This document shows, piece by piece, positions 1,809 to 62,957 of a stretch of DNA of 64,000 nt. Origin of the DNA: an uncultured Bacilli bacterium (lineage in GTDB: Bacteria > Bacillota_I > Bacilli_A > RF39 > UBA660); contig CAKOWI010000003.1 of assembly GCA_934122275.1 (NCBI GenBank), positions 29,952-93,951 on the forward strand, read 5' to 3'. Numbering within the stretch: the stretch's first letter is position 1; the number at the start of each line of letters is the position of its first letter. A program made the translations under genes and the position numbers. The notes under the pieces are model-generated. The model saw only the letters and a list, made by a program, of their open reading frames with translations. It had not been told where the DNA came from and did not search any database.

Positions 1809-2768
1809 TTAAGTATTTTTTAATTTTAAATTTAAATTTTTAAGGTATAGCCAAGTAGAATAACCTTTTTCATTACTTAATTCTTTACCTTGACCATGAG
1901 CAACTTTTATATACAAATTATATTTTAGTGAATTAGAAACACCATTTAAATTTATATTTATTTGTTTATCACGGCAGTATCTATTACTGTATACAGTAGT
2001 ATTATAATACTTTGCATTTCTTTCGTAACCATCGAATGTATCTGTAGTCACTCCAACTTTTTTACTACCATTTTCACTAATGTAGAACTCATAAACACTA
2101 GTTATACGCCTATTACCAGTTTTCGCGTTGTTACATTCTGTCACTTCAAGAACAAGTGCTTCATAATTTTTAAGGTTAATATTATTTAAACGCACTTTAG
2201 ATTCTGAATAACTTCCAACCTGTTCTACAAGTATTTTTTGATACTTAATTCCTTCACCTAAATCATCAACTGTTATATGTACATTCTTTGAATTATTACC
2301 TGAGCTATCACTTGAATCTGTCGATTCAAAATTATTTACTATCTCTTTATAATCAAAAATAGTATTACATTCTCCATCTATAGAATAACAATATCCATTA
2401 AAAGTGTAAACATTTCCATTTAAATCGTAACTTGACTGTTCTTTAGCTTCCGGAGATTTGCAAACATACTGATTGTTCATTTCAGACCTATTACTTATGT
2501 TTTTAGCATTTTCATCAGCTGGATTAGTAACATCATCATTCAAGTAATCTTCACCAATAAGCTCTGATACCTCTACACAGTTTTTATTTTTTGTATCTAA
2601 ATAAGCACTTGCTATTGCAGTAATATCTTTTGCAGCTATATATCTGGATCTTATTTTAGACTGTTTTATGCTTTTTAAAACGTTAGTTGTTGCTATAGTC
2701 ATTATAATGCCAAGTATAACTATAACAGCAAGTAATTCTATTAAAGTAAATCCCTTTTTATTTTTCAT
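1809..2768 (-). CDS. Protein with a prepilin-type N-terminal cleavage/methylation domain (pseudopilin-like) and an unknown C-terminal domain
   Basis: The N-terminus MKNKKGFTLIELLAVIVILGIIMTI is a class III (type IV pilin / ComG-like) signal. The remainder has no recognisable motif. Confidence 0.7.
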   Translation of the reverse strand: MKNKKGFTLIELLAVIVILGIIMTIATTNVLKSIKQSKIRSRYIAAKDITAIASAYLDTKNKNCVEVSELIGEDYLNDDVTNPADENAKNISNRSEMNNQYVCKSPEAKEQSSYDLNGNVYTFNGYCYSIDGECNTIFDYKEIVNNFESTDSSDSSGNNSKNVHITVDDLGEGIKYQKILVEQVGSYSESKVRLNNINLKNYEALVLEVTECNNAKTGNRRITSVYEFYISENGSKKVGVTTDTFDGYERNAKYYNTTVYSNRYCRDKQININLNGVSNSLKYNLYIKVAHGQGKELSNEKGYSTWLYLKNLNLKLKNT

Positions 2769-16292: not shown

Positions 16293-16362
16293 TTATTATC
16301 ACCTCTATAATAATTATATCATGAAAAAAAGATTCTTTGAGAATCTTTTTAGTTAATTTTAC

Positions 16363-18135
16363 TTATTTTATCTGATTATTTATTATATCCTGTATTTCTT
16401 TTTTGCATCCTTGTGTTATTTGTTTATAATAGCTTTCAGTTATTACCTTTTTATTTTCTGTATATGTATAGGTTTTATCCTTAATAATATTAAATTTATC
16501 TTTATTTATATTCAACTTATCCAAACTTATATTACCTTCGAACATATGTCTTATATCAATTATACTTGAGGTATCAAAATTTCTTATATCAAGTTTTTTT
16601 AATTTAGGACAGCTACTAAACATGTGTACCATGGTAGTTACTTTTGGTGTACTAAAATAATTAGGATTTAAATCACTGCCTAAATCAAGTTCTTCTAATT
16701 GGCCACAGTTATAAAACATATGTTGCATGGTAGTTACTTTTGATGTATCAAATCTTAATTTTAATGCTTTTACAGAACTAGACGAAAACATAAATCCCAT
16801 AGTTATTACATTTGACGTATCCCATCCACTTAAATCAAGCACATCATAATCAGTTAAACGCGTATCAAAAAACATTCTTCCCATACTAGTTACGTTTGAT
16901 GTATTCCAACTTTCAATGCCACTTATCTTTTTAAGATTTTTACATTCGCCAAATACATATGTCATATTAGTAACTTTTTCTGTATTAAAACTGCTTACAT
17001 CTAACTCCGTTAAGTTTGTACAAGCCCAAAACATATGTGAAATACTATTAACATTTTTTGTAATAAACTTTGTCACATCGATATTAGTTATCGTTGAACA
17101 GCCAGCAAACATTTGCACCATTCCACCTACTTTTTCTGTATTAAAAGACGTTAATCCATTTATACTTTCCACTTTACTGCAGCCATGAAACATATAACTC
17201 ATAGTTGTTACATTATTAGTTTTAAAACCGCTTACGTCTAACGACTTTATTTTAGAACAACTATCAAACATACTTTGCATAGTTATTACATTATCAGTTT
17301 TAAAATGACTTACATCAAGTGATTCTAAAACTAAATTTCCCATAAACATATACGACATATCTGTTACATTTGATGTATCTAGTGTCTCTATACGTGTAAT
17401 TTTTTTTAGACTACTGTTGTTATTTTTATTAAATGAAAATAATTTACTTGAATTAGGATTAGCATATACTTTTTTTCTATTAAATGTTATATGAAATATA
17501 TACTTTCCTCTATTATTTGGATCATCTCTCAATATTCCCCATACAGTTCCATTTCCATTTGCACTTATGTCTTCCTTAAGCACCCAATCACCGTCAGTAG
17601 GTTCTGCTGTTTCTTTATAAAATACAACCTCTGTTATATCTCCCGTATAGCCTGATAGCTTATTTTGTAAATCTGGTCCAGTTGTTAAAACTGCTATTCC
17701 AGACTTAATATATAATTTATAAGTTAATTCTTTTCCTAAATATTTACCATCTTTTAACCCGAATACTGTTGAATCACGATCTTTATATTTAAAAGTTAAT
17801 ACTGAGTACATTTCACTACCTATAGTTTGAGTGTCTTTAACTACTTTTGATACTGTAAGATTGCTTCCTATCTTCCTTAGAAAAGAATTATTAAGACTAT
17901 TTGTAGAATCTTTTTCTATACAGTTATTTAAATTTTCTTCTATTGAACAATAATCTTTAACTAACCTTAATGTATATGTGCTTTCTGTAAATTGATTAGT
18001 TTGTATTTTTGCTCTTTTATATAATTTACTTACTGTGCTTACCGTTTGATAAAAATATAACATTGCAACACTAACTAGTGCAAAACTTACTATTAATTCT
18101 ACTAACGTTAATCCCTTTTCATTTAGTTTTTTCAT
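16363..18135 (-). CDS. Surface protein with a prepilin-type N-terminal methylation leader fused to BspA/DUF285-type leucine-rich repeats
   Basis: N-terminus MKKLNEKGLTLVELIVSFALVSVAMLYF. The C-terminal half carries about 10 repeats of the pattern LD(V/T)S.F.T..VT.M..MF..C..L typical of DUF285/BspA LRRs. Confidence 0.75.
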   Translation of the reverse strand: MKKLNEKGLTLVELIVSFALVSVAMLYFYQTVSTVSKLYKRAKIQTNQFTESTYTLRLVKDYCSIEENLNNCIEKDSTNSLNNSFLRKIGSNLTVSKVVKDTQTIGSEMYSVLTFKYKDRDSTVFGLKDGKYLGKELTYKLYIKSGIAVLTTGPDLQNKLSGYTGDITEVVFYKETAEPTDGDWVLKEDISANGNGTVWGILRDDPNNRGKYIFHITFNRKKVYANPNSSKLFSFNKNNNSSLKKITRIETLDTSNVTDMSYMFMGNLVLESLDVSHFKTDNVITMQSMFDSCSKIKSLDVSGFKTNNVTTMSYMFHGCSKVESINGLTSFNTEKVGGMVQMFAGCSTITNIDVTKFITKNVNSISHMFWACTNLTELDVSSFNTEKVTNMTYVFGECKNLKKISGIESWNTSNVTSMGRMFFDTRLTDYDVLDLSGWDTSNVITMGFMFSSSSVKALKLRFDTSKVTTMQHMFYNCGQLEELDLGSDLNPNYFSTPKVTTMVHMFSSCPKLKKLDIRNFDTSSIIDIRHMFEGNISLDKLNINKDKFNIIKDKTYTYTENKKVITESYYKQITQGCKKEIQDIINNQIK

Positions 18136-18180
18136 TAATTATCACTTCCTGTTGATAACTATATTTTTTACTACTTTACT

Positions 18181-18215
18181 TGTTTATAATATCATATTAC
18201 CCCCCCCCCGGTCAA
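18181..18215 (-). promoter_or_regulatory. Candidate promoter of the pilin-LRR gene: TTGACC, an 18-nt spacer containing G10, then TGATATTAT (extended -10)
   Basis: The minus strand reads TTGACCGGGGGGGGGGTAATATGATATTATAAACA, about 45-80 nt upstream of the ATG at 18135. Confidence 0.5.
18200..18209. repeat. Homopolymeric C10 (G10 on the gene strand) tract
   Basis: Counted directly from ...attac cccccccccg.... I noticed no other long G/C homopolymer in this AT-rich window. Confidence 0.95.
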
Positions 18216-18273
18216 TGATTTTGAAAAGCTGTGGATAACTTGGTGTGAATTTTTTGCCACATGTTTATTTTGC

Positions 18274-18299
18274 AAGAAAAAAAGAGTGAATCACTCTTT
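18274..18299 (-). terminator. Intrinsic terminator after the GNAT gene
   Basis: AAAGAGTG-ATT-CACTCTTT hairpin followed by a U-run on the minus strand. Confidence 0.65.
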
Positions 18300-18889
18300 T
18301 AGTATGTAACAATTTTACTTATTTTATTAGTTCTAGATAAAAAGTCTTCTTTTGTTAGAATTGTTTTATATTCATCTAACTTATTTCCTTGTTCACTAAT
18401 ATATGAATCCTTTATGATTTTGTATGGTTTAAAACCTAGTTTATTCATAACTCTTTTAGCTTTAATGTTTCCCTCTAGATAGCTAGAAATAATATTATCA
18501 TATCCAAGAGAAAATAAATATTCTATAACTTTTAAAGAAGCTTCTGGCATAAATCCATTTCCCCAATAACTAGGATGTATATTACCTGATATTTCTATAG
18601 TTTTATTATTATAATCTTCATATGTTGTTAATATATTTCCTATAGGATTATTATTTATGTATATTATCCAATCAAACATTTTTGCTTTTTTTATCTTATT
18701 ATAGTATGACTTAGAGCCCTTTTTAAATAATTCGTTTATCTTATTGTCATCCTGTTTAACTAACTTACATATATTATCAACGTTTTTTAGTTTATTAAAG
18801 TCATACTCATAAACCTTTAAAAAATCTTCTTTATTCCCCTTTTTAATTATCAAGCGATTTGTTCTTAATTCTAATACTTCATAATTCAT
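18299..18889 (-). CDS. GNAT family N-acetyltransferase (RimJ/RimL-like)
   Basis: RLIIKKG..., WGNGFMPEA and AKRVMNKLGF match the GNAT A/B motif pattern. The ATG at 18889 follows a GGTGGTGA RBS. Confidence 0.65.
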   Translation of the reverse strand: MNYEVLELRTNRLIIKKGNKEDFLKVYEYDFNKLKNVDNICKLVKQDDNKINELFKKGSKSYYNKIKKAKMFDWIIYINNNPIGNILTTYEDYNNKTIEISGNIHPSYWGNGFMPEASLKVIEYLFSLGYDNIISSYLEGNIKAKRVMNKLGFKPYKIIKDSYISEQGNKLDEYKTILTKEDFLSRTNKISKIVTY

Positions 18890-19020
18890 AACTGTCACCA
18901 CCTACTTAATAATTAATTAATCATTGGTTATTTATTATAGCTACTAATTTTTCAATAATCAAGCATTTTTATCAATTGTTAACAAAGTTTCAACTTTTTT
19001 AATTTTTTATCAAAAAAAGC

Positions 19021-19066: not shown

Positions 19067-19143
19067 GGCGATGTAGCTCAGCTGGCTAGAGCATCCGGTT
19101 CATACCCGGAAGGTCGTGAGTTCGATCCTCACTGTCGCTACCA
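19067..19143 (+). tRNA. tRNA-Met (anticodon CAU), elongator type
   Basis: GGCGATGTAGCTCAGCTGGCTAGAGCATCCGGTTCATACCCGGAAGGTCGTGAGTTCGATCCTCACTGTCGCTACCA folds as a cloverleaf with D-arm GCTC/GAGC, anticodon stem CCGG/CCGG flanking the loop TTCATAC, T-arm GTGAG/CTCAC and an encoded CCA. It closely resembles the Bacillus elongator tRNA-Met as I recall it. A lysidine-modified tRNA-Ile2 cannot be fully excluded. Confidence 0.85.
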
Positions 19144-19157
19144 ATTGTGAATAACTA
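19138..19157 (+). repeat. Direct repeat copy 1 (attL-like): CTACCAATTGTGAATAACTA, covering the last 6 nt of tRNA-Met and 14 nt downstream
   Basis: Matches 21998-22017 at 19 of 20 positions. Confidence 0.8.
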
Positions 19158-19181
19158 ATTCAGAAATGGATTAGTTTTTTT
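19153..19181 (+). terminator. Intrinsic terminator after tRNA-Met
   Basis: AACTAATTC-AGAAAT-GGATTAGTT hairpin followed by a T-run. Confidence 0.6.
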
Positions 19182-19643
19182 GTTGTTAGAAAATATCCTT
19201 GAAAGAAAGAATGGTATTATGTTAAATATTATTAAAGAGGAATTACCTATTGAAAAATCGTTAAAAAGGAAGTTAGAACTAATGTGTGATTTTTCTAAAA
19301 CAACACATACTATTATAACTTGGAATATTAGAAAGATAGATAAAACAGCTGAAACTCTTACCGAAAATAATAAAGCACTTACTTTAAACAATAATACCAA
19401 AGAATAGAATAATGAAATATCTTTTTTAAAATCTAAAATAAGTGGTTTAAGAAAAACGATTGAGTATCGGAAAGATAAATTTGATAAACTAATATCATTC
19501 TTATATAGTAAATTTCATAATTGACATGATAAAGACGATAAATATATTAATGTAGTTAACGATATGTATTAAAATAACGTTTTAAATGATGATGATATTA
19601 AAGAGTTAAATTTAAATAAGAAACAAGAAGATTTTAAAAGATA
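19180..19643 (+). pseudogene. Gene remnant: one reading frame of about 155 codons interrupted by TAG (19405), TGA (19522) and TAA (19570); coiled-coil-like, possibly the C-terminal part of a plasmid/ICE mobilisation or replication protein
   Basis: My conceptual translation is ...KALTLNNNTKE*NNEISFLKSKISGLRKTIEYRKDKFDKLISFLYSKFHN*HDKDDKYINVVNDMY*NNVLNDDDIKELNLNKKQEDFKR*. There are far fewer stops than random AT-rich sequence would give. The family assignment is a guess. Confidence 0.35.
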
Positions 19644-19709
19644 ATTTAAGAATTATTAATAAAATATTAGATAATGGTGATATAATAAATAATCACAAGG
19701 AGGATTAAT

Positions 19710-20408
19710 ATGGAATACAATGTTTATTGTGACGAAAGCTGTCATTTAGTAAGTAATGATAGCAATTATATGTTAATCGGTGCAATTTCTTGCCCTAAGA
19801 ACAAAGTAAAAAAAGTAAATGAATATATAGAACATTTAAAAGAAAACTATAATATTTCTAATAAAATTGAGCTAAAATGGAACAAGATTGATAAAAAAAC
19901 AGAAAAATTATATTTAGATATTATTAATTATTTCTTTAATAATGATGATTTAAAATTTCGGGTTATCGTTATAGATAAAACAAAATTAACCCACGAAAAA
20001 TATAATCAAACTGAAAACGATTTTTATCATAAAGCATATTACGAAATGCTAAAATACATTATTGTTCCAGGAAATTCATATAATATTTATCCTGATATAA
20101 AAGATACAAACTCATATTATTATCATCAAGTAATGCTTAATTATTTAAGAATTAAAATGGCAGATTATAATAAAAAGACTATTCGTAAAGTTCAACCTAT
20201 TAGATCTTATGAAGCTCCTATATTACAAATAAATGATATATTAATTGGAGCATTATCTTATTATTACAGAAATCTATCAAATAATAGTGTAAAATTAAAC
20301 ATTATATCAGAAATCAAAAAATTGTATCAAAATGACTTGAATACAACATCATATTGTAGTAATACGAAGTTTAATATATTTATGTGGAGATCAAGAAATG
20401 ATATCTAA
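19710..20408 (+). CDS. DUF3800-like protein
   Basis: The N-terminal YCDES motif and C-terminal LQINDILIGAL resemble the conserved Y.DESG and Q.AD motifs I associate with DUF3800. AAGGAGG RBS upstream. Confidence 0.6.
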   Translation: MEYNVYCDESCHLVSNDSNYMLIGAISCPKNKVKKVNEYIEHLKENYNISNKIELKWNKIDKKTEKLYLDIINYFFNNDDLKFRVIVIDKTKLTHEKYNQTENDFYHKAYYEMLKYIIVPGNSYNIYPDIKDTNSYYYHQVMLNYLRIKMADYNKKTIRKVQPIRSYEAPILQINDILIGALSYYYRNLSNNSVKLNIISEIKKLYQNDLNTTSYCSNTKFNIFMWRSRNDI

Positions 20409-20904
20409 TAAATGTGGACTGAACGGTCCATTACCTGAAACAACTACTAATGATGAATTATATGATTACTTTATAAAAAATATATACTATGGTGATTTAA
20501 AAATAAATGGAATGAGAATTAAAGTATTTACAACGCCATTTGAAGATAATAAAATGCAAGGGTTCTTTCATTTAACAACTAAAACGCAAAAAAATTCTGG
20601 AATAAAAATTCGAATGAAAGAACCAAGAGCATATTTTATAAATTATATTGTACCGATGATAAAAAACTATTTAAATTGTCCAACTTGTGATGATTCAAAA
20701 TGTAGTAAAATAAAAATTTGGACTGCTCCATATAAAAATATTAAGAGAACCAAATTATTATACTGTGATGATTTATATAGTTATATAATAATTCTCGAAA
20801 GAAGTAAGAATGATATGTATATAATTAGTTCATATTTAATTGATGAACCAGGATATTTAAAAAATGTATTAAAAGAATACGATAAATACAAAAAATCCTC
20901 TTAA
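20398..20904 (+). CDS. Hypothetical 168-aa protein, translationally coupled to the DUF3800-like gene
   Basis: Overlaps the upstream gene by 11 nt. Contains a CPTCDDSKC cluster and a C-terminal YSYIIILERSKNDMYIISSYLID strand pattern reminiscent of small RelE/barnase-like nuclease folds (weak). Confidence 0.5.
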   Translation: MISNKCGLNGPLPETTTNDELYDYFIKNIYYGDLKINGMRIKVFTTPFEDNKMQGFFHLTTKTQKNSGIKIRMKEPRAYFINYIVPMIKNYLNCPTCDDSKCSKIKIWTAPYKNIKRTKLLYCDDLYSYIIILERSKNDMYIISSYLIDEPGYLKNVLKEYDKYKKSS

Positions 20905-20928
20905 ATTAATTTAAGAAGATTTTAAATT

Positions 20929-21000
20929 AAAAAAAACGGATAACGCAACTAATAAAAGTTGCGTCTCCAGGACTCATATAACCCTTGGTCATTGAGTAAC
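20929..21000 (-). ncRNA. Candidate ~72-nt small RNA, convergent with the DUF3800 operon
   Basis: A consensus promoter (TTGACA-17-TACAAT) lies just upstream. The predicted RNA has a 5' hairpin (ACUCAAUGACC-AAG-GGUUAUAUGAGU) and a terminator hairpin (ACGCAACU-UUUAUU-AGUUGCGU) followed by U8. It contains no ORF. Confidence 0.5.
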
Positions 21001-21003
21001 TAG

Positions 21004-21032
21004 ATTGTAGCACAAATTACATTTAATGTCAA
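21004..21032 (-). promoter_or_regulatory. Near-consensus SigA promoter: TTGACA (21032-21027), 17-nt spacer, TACAAT (21009-21004)
   Basis: Read directly on the minus strand; the spacer ends in TGC. Confidence 0.6.
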
Positions 21033-21277
21033 TCCATGGAAATTTTTGCACCACATTATATATTATTCCTCATATTATATTAATATACATAGATATGAAT
21101 AACATTTATTAGCAATCTGTATAGTAATAATGAACTGTTAATTTCCGTTTCCTAATTCTGTTTTATATTCGTTTTAACCAATTTAACAGAGAACATTGAA
21201 AAAAAACATCATTTAGTATATAATAAATCTCACATTTTTATGAGATATTTTATATTCAAATTTATGGAAGTGGTTTT

Positions 21278-21952
21278 ATGCTATTAAAGGATAAATATTT
21301 TCATAGCATTCACTCATATATTGATACATCCTATAGACACATAATGCTAGATGATATTATTGATAAAATGGAAAAAATATTTCGTTGTGGTTTTATCTTA
21401 CCATATAAAGATATAGTAAGAATTTATGGTAATGTTATATCAAGAAATAATTATGTAACTTTAAATGGATCAGATTATATTTCAATATCACTTCACGAAT
21501 CTAATCCACAAAAAATTGATATTGAATATAAAGAAAAAATATCGAATTGCGAAAATGCTTTTCAAAGTTTTATCATACAAGAACCATCAATTGTTTTAGA
21601 ACCTAATATAGCGAAAGATTTAAAGTTTTTAAATTATAACGGAATATATCTTGAAAGATTAGTGGCTGAACCCGTTTCATTAGAATATATGAGTGCAATT
21701 TCAATATTTGCACCTGGAATGTTAGAACCATTTTTTAACAATATACCCGAAACACAATATTATAATTGTTTTAATGATTCATCGTTTAGAATAATAACTA
21801 TAGAATATTTAGATAAGATTATAGAATTAATTAAAAAATATGGGTATGATATTCCGGTTGTTGATATATGTACAGGTAATTCATATAAAGAAAATGAAAA
21901 ATACAGAGAATATGTAAAAACTTTAAAAAGACACTATATTTCTAGAGATTAG
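21278..21952 (+). CDS. Hypothetical protein (island cargo, no recognisable domain)
   Basis: 224-aa ORF preceded by a long 373-bp intergenic region. Confidence 0.45.
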   Translation: MLLKDKYFHSIHSYIDTSYRHIMLDDIIDKMEKIFRCGFILPYKDIVRIYGNVISRNNYVTLNGSDYISISLHESNPQKIDIEYKEKISNCENAFQSFIIQEPSIVLEPNIAKDLKFLNYNGIYLERLVAEPVSLEYMSAISIFAPGMLEPFFNNIPETQYYNCFNDSSFRIITIEYLDKIIELIKKYGYDIPVVDICTGNSYKENEKYREYVKTLKRHYISRD

Positions 21953-21997
21953 TTATTTATTAACTAATTACTTAGGTTCCGGATATACTATATCCTC

Positions 21998-22017
21998 CTA
22001 CCAATTGTAAATAACTA
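21998..22017 (+). repeat. Direct repeat copy 2 (attR-like): CTACCAATTGTAAATAACTA
   Basis: Matches 19138-19157 at 19 of 20 positions. It is preceded by ATCCTC, which also occurs in the tRNA T-arm. Confidence 0.8.
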
Positions 22018-60256: not shown

Positions 60257-60919
60257 TTAATCCATTTCTACTATATAAAGTTTATTTTCTTTTTCTATAA
60301 TTATTATGTTAGCTTCTTTTTCATATCCTAAATCTTCACTATAATCCCAAGTAATATTAACTTTATATGCATCTATTGTAGTACCCTTTTTAGATGTTAT
60401 TGTTTTATATCTTTTAGTAGTTGTTGTAGTCGTTTTATCATATATAGTAAAAGTAGTATTCTCTATGGTTACATCCTTAATCTCACTAACAGTTGGTAGC
60501 GATTGTGTTCTTTTTTCAACATCACTTTCTATATATTTATATATTGTACTTCTTGCCTTTTCAATAAAATTATCTTTTATTTCAGGATATACAAACTCTG
60601 ATCCACCAACATCATTTTTGCTTTTTTTATTACTTAATGTATAAAAATCTATTATAAACAACTTAGAAATACACTTAGCATAATCTTCTTTAGAAACATC
60701 TTTTTCATTTAAAATATTTACTAACTCATCAAAGTTTTCTTTATATAATTTAGTTTCATTTTCCTTTAAGGTATATCCATAATTATCAATACTTTTAATT
60801 ACTTTAACTTCAGTATCATCTTTCTTATCATATAAATAGTTATACATAACAAATGCTACAATCCCAATTATTATTAATATAAGTAGTACTATTAATATTC
60901 TTTTTAATATCTTATTCAT
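60257..60919 (-). CDS. Hypothetical membrane-anchored protein
   Basis: ATG at 60919 after a GGAGAG RBS; a single N-terminal transmembrane segment. Confidence 0.4.
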   Translation of the reverse strand: MNKILKRILIVLLILIIIGIVAFVMYNYLYDKKDDTEVKVIKSIDNYGYTLKENETKLYKENFDELVNILNEKDVSKEDYAKCISKLFIIDFYTLSNKKSKNDVGGSEFVYPEIKDNFIEKARSTIYKYIESDVEKRTQSLPTVSEIKDVTIENTTFTIYDKTTTTTTKRYKTITSKKGTTIDAYKVNITWDYSEDLGYEKEANIIIIEKENKLYIVEMD

Positions 60920-62957
60920 TAATACTCTCCTTACTATTTTCATTTAGTAAATTATATATTATAAGCGAATCAGATACATCTAATAATTTATTGGCATACT
61001 TTTTATTCTCGTCTATCTCTCCTTCGGTTACAACACTATCTTTAATTAATAGATATTCTTCTTTTTGTGCATTGTAATACATTTTATCAGTTAACCAGTT
61101 TCCATTTGGAAATACAACTATATTTTGATCTATACTAAATATATCATGTCCTAAAGCATACTTAGTATCAAAATTAAACATATTACCAAGTGTTGGCATA
61201 ACATCATACATACCCATTACTTTGTTTATTTTCTTATTAAGTAATTTATTATTTTTACTATCTTTTGTCCAAATAATTAAAGGTACCCTTCTATTTAATT
61301 CATAATCATAATAGTCTACATTTCTATAATTTGGTGAACTACTATCTAATTGCTCACCAGTTGCTAAATCATAATTATAAAAGTATGAATACTCTTTTTT
61401 AGAAAGTTTAGCATCATGATCACCATATATTACTACAACCGTATTTTCTAGTAAACCTGCTTCATCAAGTTCAGCAAAGAATTCACCAATGGCTTGATCT
61501 GCATAATGTACAGACTTAAAGTATTTTCCTAGTTTTGTACCTTCCATATAGTCTCTTGTCTTTTCGGTAGTATTACCATTTTCATCCGTTTCTGTATACT
61601 TATAATCAACAGTATAATCATCAAATAATTCTGACTCATCAAAAGGAGTATGATTAGACAACATCAAAAGTGTTACATAAAAGTTCTGATTTTTTTGACT
61701 TATATTTTTAAGTTTCTCAGTAGATTGTTTGAAAAATGATTTATCAGATAATCCTAATCCTATTACTTCATCTATGTTATAAGAATCTTTGGCATAAAAC
61801 TTTTTATATCCTAGTGTTTTATGCATTACATTTCTATTCCAAAATGATGCATTATTAGCATGCATACTAGCAGTATAATAACCCTTATTTTGTAATATAG
61901 ATGGTATTGCATCATATGTTCTGTTCCAATAATTTACAAATACAGTACCACTAGATACTGGAAGAAGAGATGTATTAAATGTAAATTCTGAATCACTACT
62001 AGTACCCACACTAACTTGTGAATAAAAATTAGTAAAATATAATCCTTCACTGGCTATTCTATTTAAATTTGGTGTTAATTCTTGATTATTAAATGATAAA
62101 GTCATATTCTGCTGCATCATACTTTCAGCATGAATAACAATAACGTTTTTTCCTTCAAAAATGTTTGTATACCCATTACTTACTTTTGTTTCTCTTTCCT
62201 TTTCTGAATAAAAATCTCTAAACGTTTTAGATGCTTTATCATATCCAAATAAATTATTAAATTTAGGTTCTAGGCTCCTTATTAAATCATTAACTTGATA
62301 TACATATATACCAAATCTATTAACTAAGTATTCTCTATTCCATTGCTTTTTTAACCTACTATAATCAGATGGAACCATAAGTATTAAAGTAAAAATAAGA
62401 AGAGAAAATCCAAGAACTATAGTATTTAAAAATCTTTTCTTCCCCCTCTCTATTTTTTCCACATACTTATAATAATTCTTTTTTTTCAAAACACTGTGGA
62501 CAATTAATAAAACAAATGGTGGAAAGATTAAAATAACATCTTTAATGTGGATAAGTGTAGTTACAACAGAACCATCCATATCACCTAAAAATGATGCTGT
62601 GGATAACAATGAAAATGATGCAAAAGATACATAGTTTTCATAATATATTGCATTTATTACACATATAAGAGTCATAAGTAAAGTTAATCCAAATAAAGTT
62701 CTAATCTGATTTTTAGGCTTAAGTAAATATGCTAAAGAACCAAATAAAAGTATAAATACTAAATCAGATATAATAGCTTTTACGGAAAAATATGATCCCA
62801 TTGTAACTATTCTAAGTAACATCGAATTAATTAAATTTATAATTACATATGTTATAAATAGTATATTAGTTTTTATGTATAACTTTATACTAATTTCTTT
62901 TAATCTACTTTTTAATTTATTTATATATTGTAAAAAGTTTTTCTTACATTTATTCAT
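60912..62957 (-). CDS. ltaS: Lipoteichoic acid synthase family (LtaS-type sulfatase-fold) protein
   Basis: Five N-terminal transmembrane segments plus an extracellular sulfatase-like domain (VIVIHAESM...GTSSDSEF...LSNHTPF...IYGDHD). Confidence 0.75.
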   Translation of the reverse strand: MNKCKKNFLQYINKLKSRLKEISIKLYIKTNILFITYVIINLINSMLLRIVTMGSYFSVKAIISDLVFILLFGSLAYLLKPKNQIRTLFGLTLLMTLICVINAIYYENYVSFASFSLLSTASFLGDMDGSVVTTLIHIKDVILIFPPFVLLIVHSVLKKKNYYKYVEKIERGKKRFLNTIVLGFSLLIFTLILMVPSDYSRLKKQWNREYLVNRFGIYVYQVNDLIRSLEPKFNNLFGYDKASKTFRDFYSEKERETKVSNGYTNIFEGKNVIVIHAESMMQQNMTLSFNNQELTPNLNRIASEGLYFTNFYSQVSVGTSSDSEFTFNTSLLPVSSGTVFVNYWNRTYDAIPSILQNKGYYTASMHANNASFWNRNVMHKTLGYKKFYAKDSYNIDEVIGLGLSDKSFFKQSTEKLKNISQKNQNFYVTLLMLSNHTPFDESELFDDYTVDYKYTETDENGNTTEKTRDYMEGTKLGKYFKSVHYADQAIGEFFAELDEAGLLENTVVVIYGDHDAKLSKKEYSYFYNYDLATGEQLDSSSPNYRNVDYYDYELNRRVPLIIWTKDSKNNKLLNKKINKVMGMYDVMPTLGNMFNFDTKYALGHDIFSIDQNIVVFPNGNWLTDKMYYNAQKEEYLLIKDSVVTEGEIDENKKYANKLLDVSDSLIIYNLLNENSKESINE

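Follow-up and report, generated by a model that had tools for sequence, protein, structure and literature searches.

A poly-G tract in the predicted promoter spacer of a pilin-LRR gene from an uncultured RF39-like gut bacterium: a candidate contingency element

Introduction

Does a run of ten G's between the predicted -35 and -10 hexamers of a surface-protein gene act as a contingency element in an uncultured gut bacterium? The question is raised by a 64-kb stretch of DNA (the window, by which we mean the whole stretch analysed), for which a preliminary description, made from the letters alone, had proposed a phase-variable promoter. For human-gut commensals, surveys of phase variation have dealt mostly with invertible promoters, and repeat-slippage promoters are known chiefly from pathogens, namely Neisseria, Haemophilus, Treponema and the mycoplasmas.

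Precedents for such tracts fall close to the present case in position or in gene family. Poly-G or poly-C tracts in the -35/-10 spacer control porA and fetA (PMC5320596; PMC7864442). In T. pallidum, tp0126 has a poly-G tract between its -35 and -10 elements and is transcribed best at a spacing of 17 nt, and poly-G tracts in this species take lengths of 7-11 that differ within isolates as well as between them (PMC7864442). In M. capricolum, contingency loci consist of homopolymer or dinucleotide repeats in the 5' flank of surface lipoprotein genes of the PARCEL/DUF285 family (PMC2996958), and a poly-G tract lies 5' of each spma gene in M. agalactiae (PMC2824730). For the locus described here, we think it probable that the G run is a contingency element in a sigma-A-type promoter, in which slippage would alter the spacer and thereby tune the transcription and display of a pilin-adhesin.

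Results

A lone poly-G tract in a predicted promoter spacer

The tract lies in 163 nt of intergenic DNA that separate a GNAT acetyltransferase gene (18299-18901) from a 590-aa ORF (16363-18135). The elements of this region are as follows.

18280-18300, minus strand: predicted intrinsic terminator hairpin and T-run between the GNAT gene and the promoter; fold -8.2 kcal/mol
18216-18262, minus strand: conserved block of ~45 nt 5' of the -35, from the alignment; common to the second-locus homologue L007
18210-18215, minus strand: -35 hexamer TTGACC, predicted by promoter scan
18200-18209, minus strand: G10 homopolymer (plus strand: C10), the first 10 nt of the predicted spacer
18192-18199, minus strand: remainder of the spacer, TAATATGA, with a TG extension at 18194-18193
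18186-18191, minus strand: -10 hexamer TATTAT, predicted by promoter scan
18136-18179, minus strand: predicted 5'UTR of ~44 nt, its start placed near 18179 from the promoter
18143-18150, minus strand: RBS AGGAAGTG, within the predicted leader
16363-18135, minus strand: gene for a predicted 590-aa modular type IV pilin (Pfam N_methyl, DUF285; NCBIfam PARCEL)
16324-16350, minus strand: terminator-like hairpin and T-run between the pilin gene and galE; -8.7 kcal/mol

With the G10 of the window sequence the -35/-10 spacer is 18 nt long, and the tract, TTGACC and the extended -10 all lie where they had been placed in the preliminary description. Purely on promoter prediction, this is a homopolymer of at least about 7 nt between -35 and -10 hexamers. 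The tract-spanning site has 10 of 12 consensus positions (5/6 and 5/6) plus TG and is the top minus-strand score of a consensus scan of the 163-nt gap, under sigma-A promoter rules for RF39 that were taken over from the Bacillota generally and may not be the host's own. The -10 and its TG do not vary among the seven aligned sequences, which include homologues with 77-88% protein identity, and the 5'UTR is 100% identical across the same seven. The TTGAC part of the -35 is kept in every contig that reaches that far, the hexamer reading TTGACG in the L007 homologue. The ATG at 18135 follows 51 nt 3' of the -10.

Such a tract is conspicuous in DNA of this composition. A homopolymer census of the window (64 kb, 26.3% GC) returned the C10/G10 tract as the sole G/C run of at least 6, so that the earlier remark on the lack of any other long G/C homopolymer proved correct. 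Even at a length of at least 5, the only G/C runs in the window are two C5 and the C10 tract, and the plus strand has no G5. C runs of at least 10 are expected only 8e-4 times per 64 kb with independent bases and 1.8e-3 times under a first-order Markov model. Scans of JGI metagenomes and of viral contigs with a pattern combining tract, -10 and leader each gave 0 matches.

The host

By exact-protein look-ups, the locus occurs in human-gut metagenomes of the Hadza and of other cohorts. The threonyl-tRNA synthetase (ThrRS) encoded in the window shares 85% identity with its counterpart in Candidatus Aphodocola excrementigallinarum, and an exact ThrRS protein look-up returned no additional strain. 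NCBI places Candidatus Aphodocola in Bacilli incertae sedis. Judged by this protein, the host belongs to a Bacilli lineage close to Candidatus Aphodocola in the order RF39, a phylogenetic neighbour of the Mollicutes. In GTDB terms Candidatus Aphodocola is genus CAG-594, family CAG-433, order RF39 (PMC8035907).

The downstream gene encodes a predicted pilin fused to a leucine-rich solenoid

The gene had been read in the preliminary description as a pilin leader joined to a DUF285/BspA-type LRR protein, and profile matches bear this out. It begins with a class III (prepilin) signal peptide, MKKLNEKG/LTLVE (MKKLNEKG/LTLVELIVSFALVSVAMLYF), and matches Pfam N_methyl (PF07963) at 22.3 bits against a cut-off of 21.2. 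It was further assigned to DUF285/PARCEL by tandem repeats of ~25 residues that match PF03382 or TIGR02167 above the curated cut-off: DUF285 (PF03382) scores 262 bits against a cut-off of 25 (E 5.9e-79), and PARCEL (TIGR02167) scores 232.6 bits against a cut-off of 30 (E 1e-70), with 9 repeats. The protein thus carries an extra non-pilin module, the DUF285/PARCEL solenoid, fused C-terminally. Homologues in the databases bear the name BspA family LRR surface protein.

In an AlphaFold model (mean pLDDT 82.5), an N-terminal helix (4-63) is followed by a small beta-sheet, a beta domain and then the solenoid, which spans residues 240-545 with pLDDT above 90. The pilin-like part, that is helix 4-63 and strands 93-144, reaches a pLDDT of only 50-75. 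Foldseek against the PDB gave no significant match, to pilins or otherwise, the top entry being the LRR domain of TLR9 (E 2.6e-3).

The first ~60 residues are common to pilin-like proteins, typically of 160-390 aa, that have unrelated C-terminal parts. The pilin-module genes of these relatives lie directly behind another pilin gene, in the manner of operonic minor pilins, and in one case (L079) a gene with the same N-terminal module stands beside T2SSF, Peptidase_A24 and T2SSE, a type IV filament locus. Within the 64-kb window itself, type IV filament machinery is absent. Taken together, the predicted protein fits a modular pilin design with an LRR module. We also considered that a poly-G promoter might be widespread among relatives that share the pilin N-terminus. 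This was rejected: these are operonic minor pilins, and no G/C run of at least 7 occurs in 358 kb of their sequence.

The window contains a second orphan pilin-like gene (1809-2768, minus strand), which encodes 319 aa with the N_methyl motif MKNKKGFTLIE and no other domain. It adjoins genes for dUTPase and nrdD/nrdG, apart from pilus machinery.

Tract length differs among near-identical assemblies

The tract was compared across human-gut assemblies that contain the locus.

window: G10, spacer 18 nt
ERZ4567885: G9, spacer 17 nt
ERZ4560092: G9, spacer 17 nt
ERZ28614138: G9, spacer 17 nt
ERZ4561457: G9, spacer 17 nt; contig starts 5 nt before the tract
ERZ27287303: G8, spacer 16 nt

A tract of constant length among isolates would, according to the preliminary description, have spoken against its proposal. 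Instead, G8, G9 and G10 occur between conserved flanks, as consensus lengths of metagenome assemblies of which several are thinly covered (2.5x, 4.4x, 4.5x and 6.8x according to the record names; one contig is at 12x). In pairwise alignments of the window with these five contigs (99.7-100% identical, 3.4-7.8 kb), the tract is the sole indel. A/T runs of at least 7, of which each aligned region holds 5-16, none as long as the tract, are unchanged in the same five contigs. The alignment with ERZ4567885 runs for 19,730 nt without a mismatch and has a single gap, at the tract. It had also been noted that losing one G would give the optimal 17-nt spacing, and G9 is indeed the commonest allele among these assemblies.

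The tract is kept in more distant genes as well. The homologue L007 (88% protein identity) has G9, L005 (80%) at least G9 and L006 (77%) G8, and each has kept the TG, the -10 and an identical leader. The upkeep of the tract in homologues of 77-88% identity, in a genome of 26% GC, argues for selection for a mutable tract, as far as conservation can indicate it.

The most serious alternative is that the tract is a fixed spacer and that G8, G9 and G10 are sequencing or assembly errors at a homopolymer, with no phase variation. Illumina indel error is elevated at G runs, several of the contigs have the low coverage given above, and the window and ERZ4567885, otherwise identical over 19.7 kb, may be one strain assembled twice. 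Three of nine contigs (L004, L005 and L006) begin at the tract or within 5 nt of it, the contigs with the diverged alleles L005 and L006 starting exactly there. These breaks are suggestive, being the expected effect of mixed lengths within a sample on an assembly graph, but poor sequencing through poly-G could give the same breaks. An origin in error fits less well with three consensus lengths, the 12x contig among them, and with a tract kept across diverged homologues where G runs are otherwise absent; moreover, G/C runs of at least 8 are hypermutable in every organism measured (PMC7864442). We consider error to be an unlikely explanation, and retain a tract that varies in length among strains as the preferred one.

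Clearly OFF alleles, that is G7 or shorter and G11 or longer, were not seen among the assemblies compared; OFF-like alleles may be present as minorities that consensus assemblies hide. In a separate observation on contig ends, the L002/L059 and L058 contigs start at one and the same position, inside the upstream terminator hairpin. Contig starts that coincide with repeat structures of the cassette described below look like assembly breakpoints.

The gene is flanked by terminators and appears to rely on the tract-spanning promoter

Since terminator hairpins lie on both sides of the gene, it would be monocistronic, and its expression should hang on the poly-G promoter alone. The hairpin at 18280-18300 is predicted to insulate this promoter from read-through out of the GNAT gene. 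We considered co-transcription with galE, by which the tract would also control surface-glycan synthesis, and rejected it, as a hairpin, a T-run and a TG-extended -10 stand between both genes. We also discarded reiterative transcription that would start at a promoter lying upstream of the tract: when the sequence there was checked by eye, no credible -10/-35 pair was present.

A further alternative is that transcription starts from another promoter, such as TAAACA-17-TATAGT (18186-18158), in which case the tract would be an upstream regulator-binding or DNA-structure element, or else neutral. The promoter scan does place this site, with 9 of 12 consensus positions, downstream of the tract, and the ~45 conserved nt upstream of the -35, with their DnaA-box-like 9-mer, hint at regulator binding. 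Moreover, tracts act outside a simple spacer in the tpr genes of T. pallidum and in opc (PMC7864442). However, TAAACA-17-TATAGT is the weaker site: its -35 has 4/6 positions, it lacks a TG, and the leader would be just ~15 nt long, whereas the tract-spanning site combines 5/6, 5/6 and TG with a commonest allele of exactly 17 nt. A start elsewhere is thus improbable in our estimation, and we proceed with the tract-spanning site as the promoter.

The leader can form a hairpin (18120-18180, minus strand; fold -7.4 kcal/mol, z = -2.97) with the RBS in its loop and a stem that ends one base before the ATG. An Rfam search gave no match in the leader or promoter, two tRNAs being the only matches in the window.

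The perfect DnaA-box-like 9-mer, TTATCCACA, lies at 18230-18238 inside the conserved block, 15 nt upstream of the -35, and varies only within the box consensus (TTATGCACA in L002, TTTTCCACA in L007). A single perfect 9-mer could be a chance occurrence and is not significant alone. One-mismatch matches to the DnaA box number 40 in the window against 24.7 expected, a count that 2 of 100 shuffles reach. Inside the ORF 60912-62957, five DnaA-box-like 9-mers lie close together, within ~150 nt (62455-62606).

The promoter and gene form a strain-variable cassette

The gene, its promoter and its own upstream terminator make up a cassette of 1,956 bp (16372-18327), bounded by two copies of a direct repeat.

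18311-18327, minus strand: direct repeat copy 1, ATAAAATAAGTAAAATT, 17 nt; 3' end of the GNAT gene and left edge of the cassette
16355-16371, minus strand: direct repeat copy 2, 17 nt; overlaps the pilin stop codon; right edge of the cassette

The two copies of ATAAAATAAGTAAAATT in the window compare with 0.04 expected. The cassette is precisely missing from L063, L064 and L072, in which GNAT is followed directly by galE; these strains are conspecific in having ThrRS 99-100% identical and flanks 98.7% identical. The hairpin at 16324-16350 is the GNAT terminator in cassette-free strains.

Homologues occur at a second locus. The surroundings of L007 and L006 differ from those in the window, the genes upstream of L007 being SirA and UPF0154, and the two have one common 3' flank, unlike that of the window. 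Because the promoter, tract and leader are kept there, this block travels with the gene. A scan of GTDB species representatives with the protein returned only distant DUF285 proteins (at most 44% identity) and no orthologous locus. In a plasmid collection, the only matches were short ones, at the LRR level, to BspA-like genes of Enterococcus, and they give no sign that the cassette is plasmid-borne.

Identity along the gene is uneven. From the tract to ~330 nt into the coding region, the window is 92-99% identical per 100-nt bin to L005, L006 and L007, whereas nucleotide identity drops to 63-85% in the 3' halves of the gene and in parts of its LRR region (16363-18208 against L005-L007). The gene is therefore a mosaic, a pattern that points to replacement of alleles or to diversifying selection acting on the LRR module. 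Identity returns to 98% in the galE flank of L005. At the left junction of the window, the repeat followed by GTTACATACTAAAAGAG... is similar to the 3' tail of the second-locus homologue (L007 and L006), a likeness that suggests recombination via tandem or circular forms of the cassette.

That the tract is a by-product of cassette movement, a recombination or insertion scar with no role in expression, we regard as very improbable, for although the cassette is present or absent among conspecific strains, has the 17-nt repeat at both ends and has a homologous gene at a second locus, the tract sits ~100 nt within the cassette and away from its edge, the homology between the two loci reaches ~45 nt upstream of the -35, and no recombinase gene is adjacent.

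Discussion

The observations above can be assembled into a mechanism in which slipped-strand mispairing at replication would add or remove G's and thereby shift the spacer to 16 nt (G8), 17 nt (G9, the optimum) or 18 nt (G10), and presumably further. Single cells would then transcribe the gene at differing levels, heritably yet reversibly. The modular pilin would be processed by prepilin peptidase and shown on a type IV filament, probably at its tip, with the filament machinery encoded elsewhere in the genome, and tract length would thus vary the amount of adhesin or antigen displayed. The effect of tract length on expression, its reversibility within a population and the incorporation of the protein into a pilus are all steps that we infer.

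What kind of control would this be? The earlier proposal of a phase-variable promoter is supported, as far as comparative sequence can reach, by the length polymorphism and the conserved tract, and of the two forms that it named, on/off and volume control, spacers of 16-18 nt fit volume control better. Graded control is expected over strict on/off switching because only these spacers, all normally functional, were seen, and because the -10 is TG-extended. A TG-extended -10 can reduce reliance on the -35 and on spacer length, and the effect of tract length on transcription could be small, given this extension.

Promoter-spacer contingency is a mechanism already known, and no new mechanism is proposed here. 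As in porA of N. meningitidis (poly-G) and fetA of N. gonorrhoeae (poly-C), a surface-protein gene here has a G/C homopolymer of strain-variable length in its (predicted) -35/-10 spacer; in porA and fetA the spacing sets the level of transcription, and it would do so in the present gene. The host differs, being an uncultured monoderm gut Bacilli, and the product is a pilin-fused LRR protein rather than a porin or receptor. The likeness to tp0126 extends to the spacing, the commonest allele here, G9, giving the 17 nt that is the tp0126 optimum. T. pallidum is nevertheless another organism with another protein family, and its tpr tracts lie just upstream of the transcription start and not in a clean spacer. 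The Mollicutes loci match in the PARCEL/DUF285 family, very low GC and a conspicuous poly-G in the 5' flank of a surface gene. They differ in that the mycoplasma proteins are lipoproteins, in place of the prepilin (class III) leader found here, and in that the position of the PARCEL and spma tracts relative to -35 and -10 is mostly undefined, whereas here the tract falls within the predicted spacer.

With respect to the protein, modular type IV pilins have been catalogued as more than 1,200 proteins in 264 architectures (PMC8179133). PilB (vWA) and PilC (lectin) of S. sanguinis combine, like the protein described here, a class III signal peptide, a small pilin module and a bulky binding module, which in pilins of this type is probably at the pilus tip (PMC8179133). 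Unlike them, the present gene has a DUF285/PARCEL LRR module, a class for which (as for leucine-rich modules) there is no mention in PMC8179133, and is an orphan cassette outside a pilus locus with its own poly-G promoter.

Neisseria PilC1/PilC2 offers another comparison, as a pilus-associated adhesin with a poly-G tract; for the present gene, control of amount is proposed. Phase variation of PilC by poly-G frameshift was reportedly described by Jonsson et al. in 1991. The PilC tract is coding, and so a translational on/off switch, and PilC is no pilin, whereas the tract here is transcriptional and the product a pilin fusion. PilC is a tip-located pilus adhesin (PMC3960869).

What sets the locus apart is the host (uncultured and RF39-like), the gene class (pilin plus PARCEL LRR) and the presence/absence and mosaicism of the cassette. 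The locus points to use of a mycoplasma-style poly-G trick in a very AT-rich genome by a gut lineage near RF39 that is uncultured and has a small genome. This trick would vary how much of a pilus-borne LRR adhesin is displayed, an adhesin that in turn differs among strains and is mosaic. The case also flags homopolymer length as a cause of assembly breaks and of hidden population heterogeneity in such MAGs.

More speculatively, the 1,956-bp unit might be a portable, self-regulating plug-in adhesin cassette that moves between sites and strains of RF39-like gut bacteria through recombination at its terminal repeats. The promoter and pilin-module block would then serve as the recombination handle and the LRR as the diversifying payload, giving an existing type IV filament interchangeable, switchable tip modules. 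We offer this as a doubtful but conceivable extension.

Elsewhere in the window, a 2,860-bp segment (19149-22008) that directly adjoins tRNA-Met (19067-19143) is lacking in conspecific strains. It holds a candidate defence pair assigned by PADLOC, PDC-M04A (DUF3800, 19710-20408, E 5e-74) and PDC-M04B (20398-20904, E 7e-24), and one further ORF (21278-21952).

Further G/C runs came to light in other genomes. In a Lachnospiraceae MAG contig (L017:4701-4860), G11 and C52 runs lie ~100 nt apart and may have arisen as an artefact of assembly. An Alloprevotella sp. genome (L034:9902) has a C8 ~100 nt upstream of the point where a DUF285/BspA match begins, and among the distant DUF285 loci from the GTDB scan this is the only one with a C8 within ~100 nt upstream.
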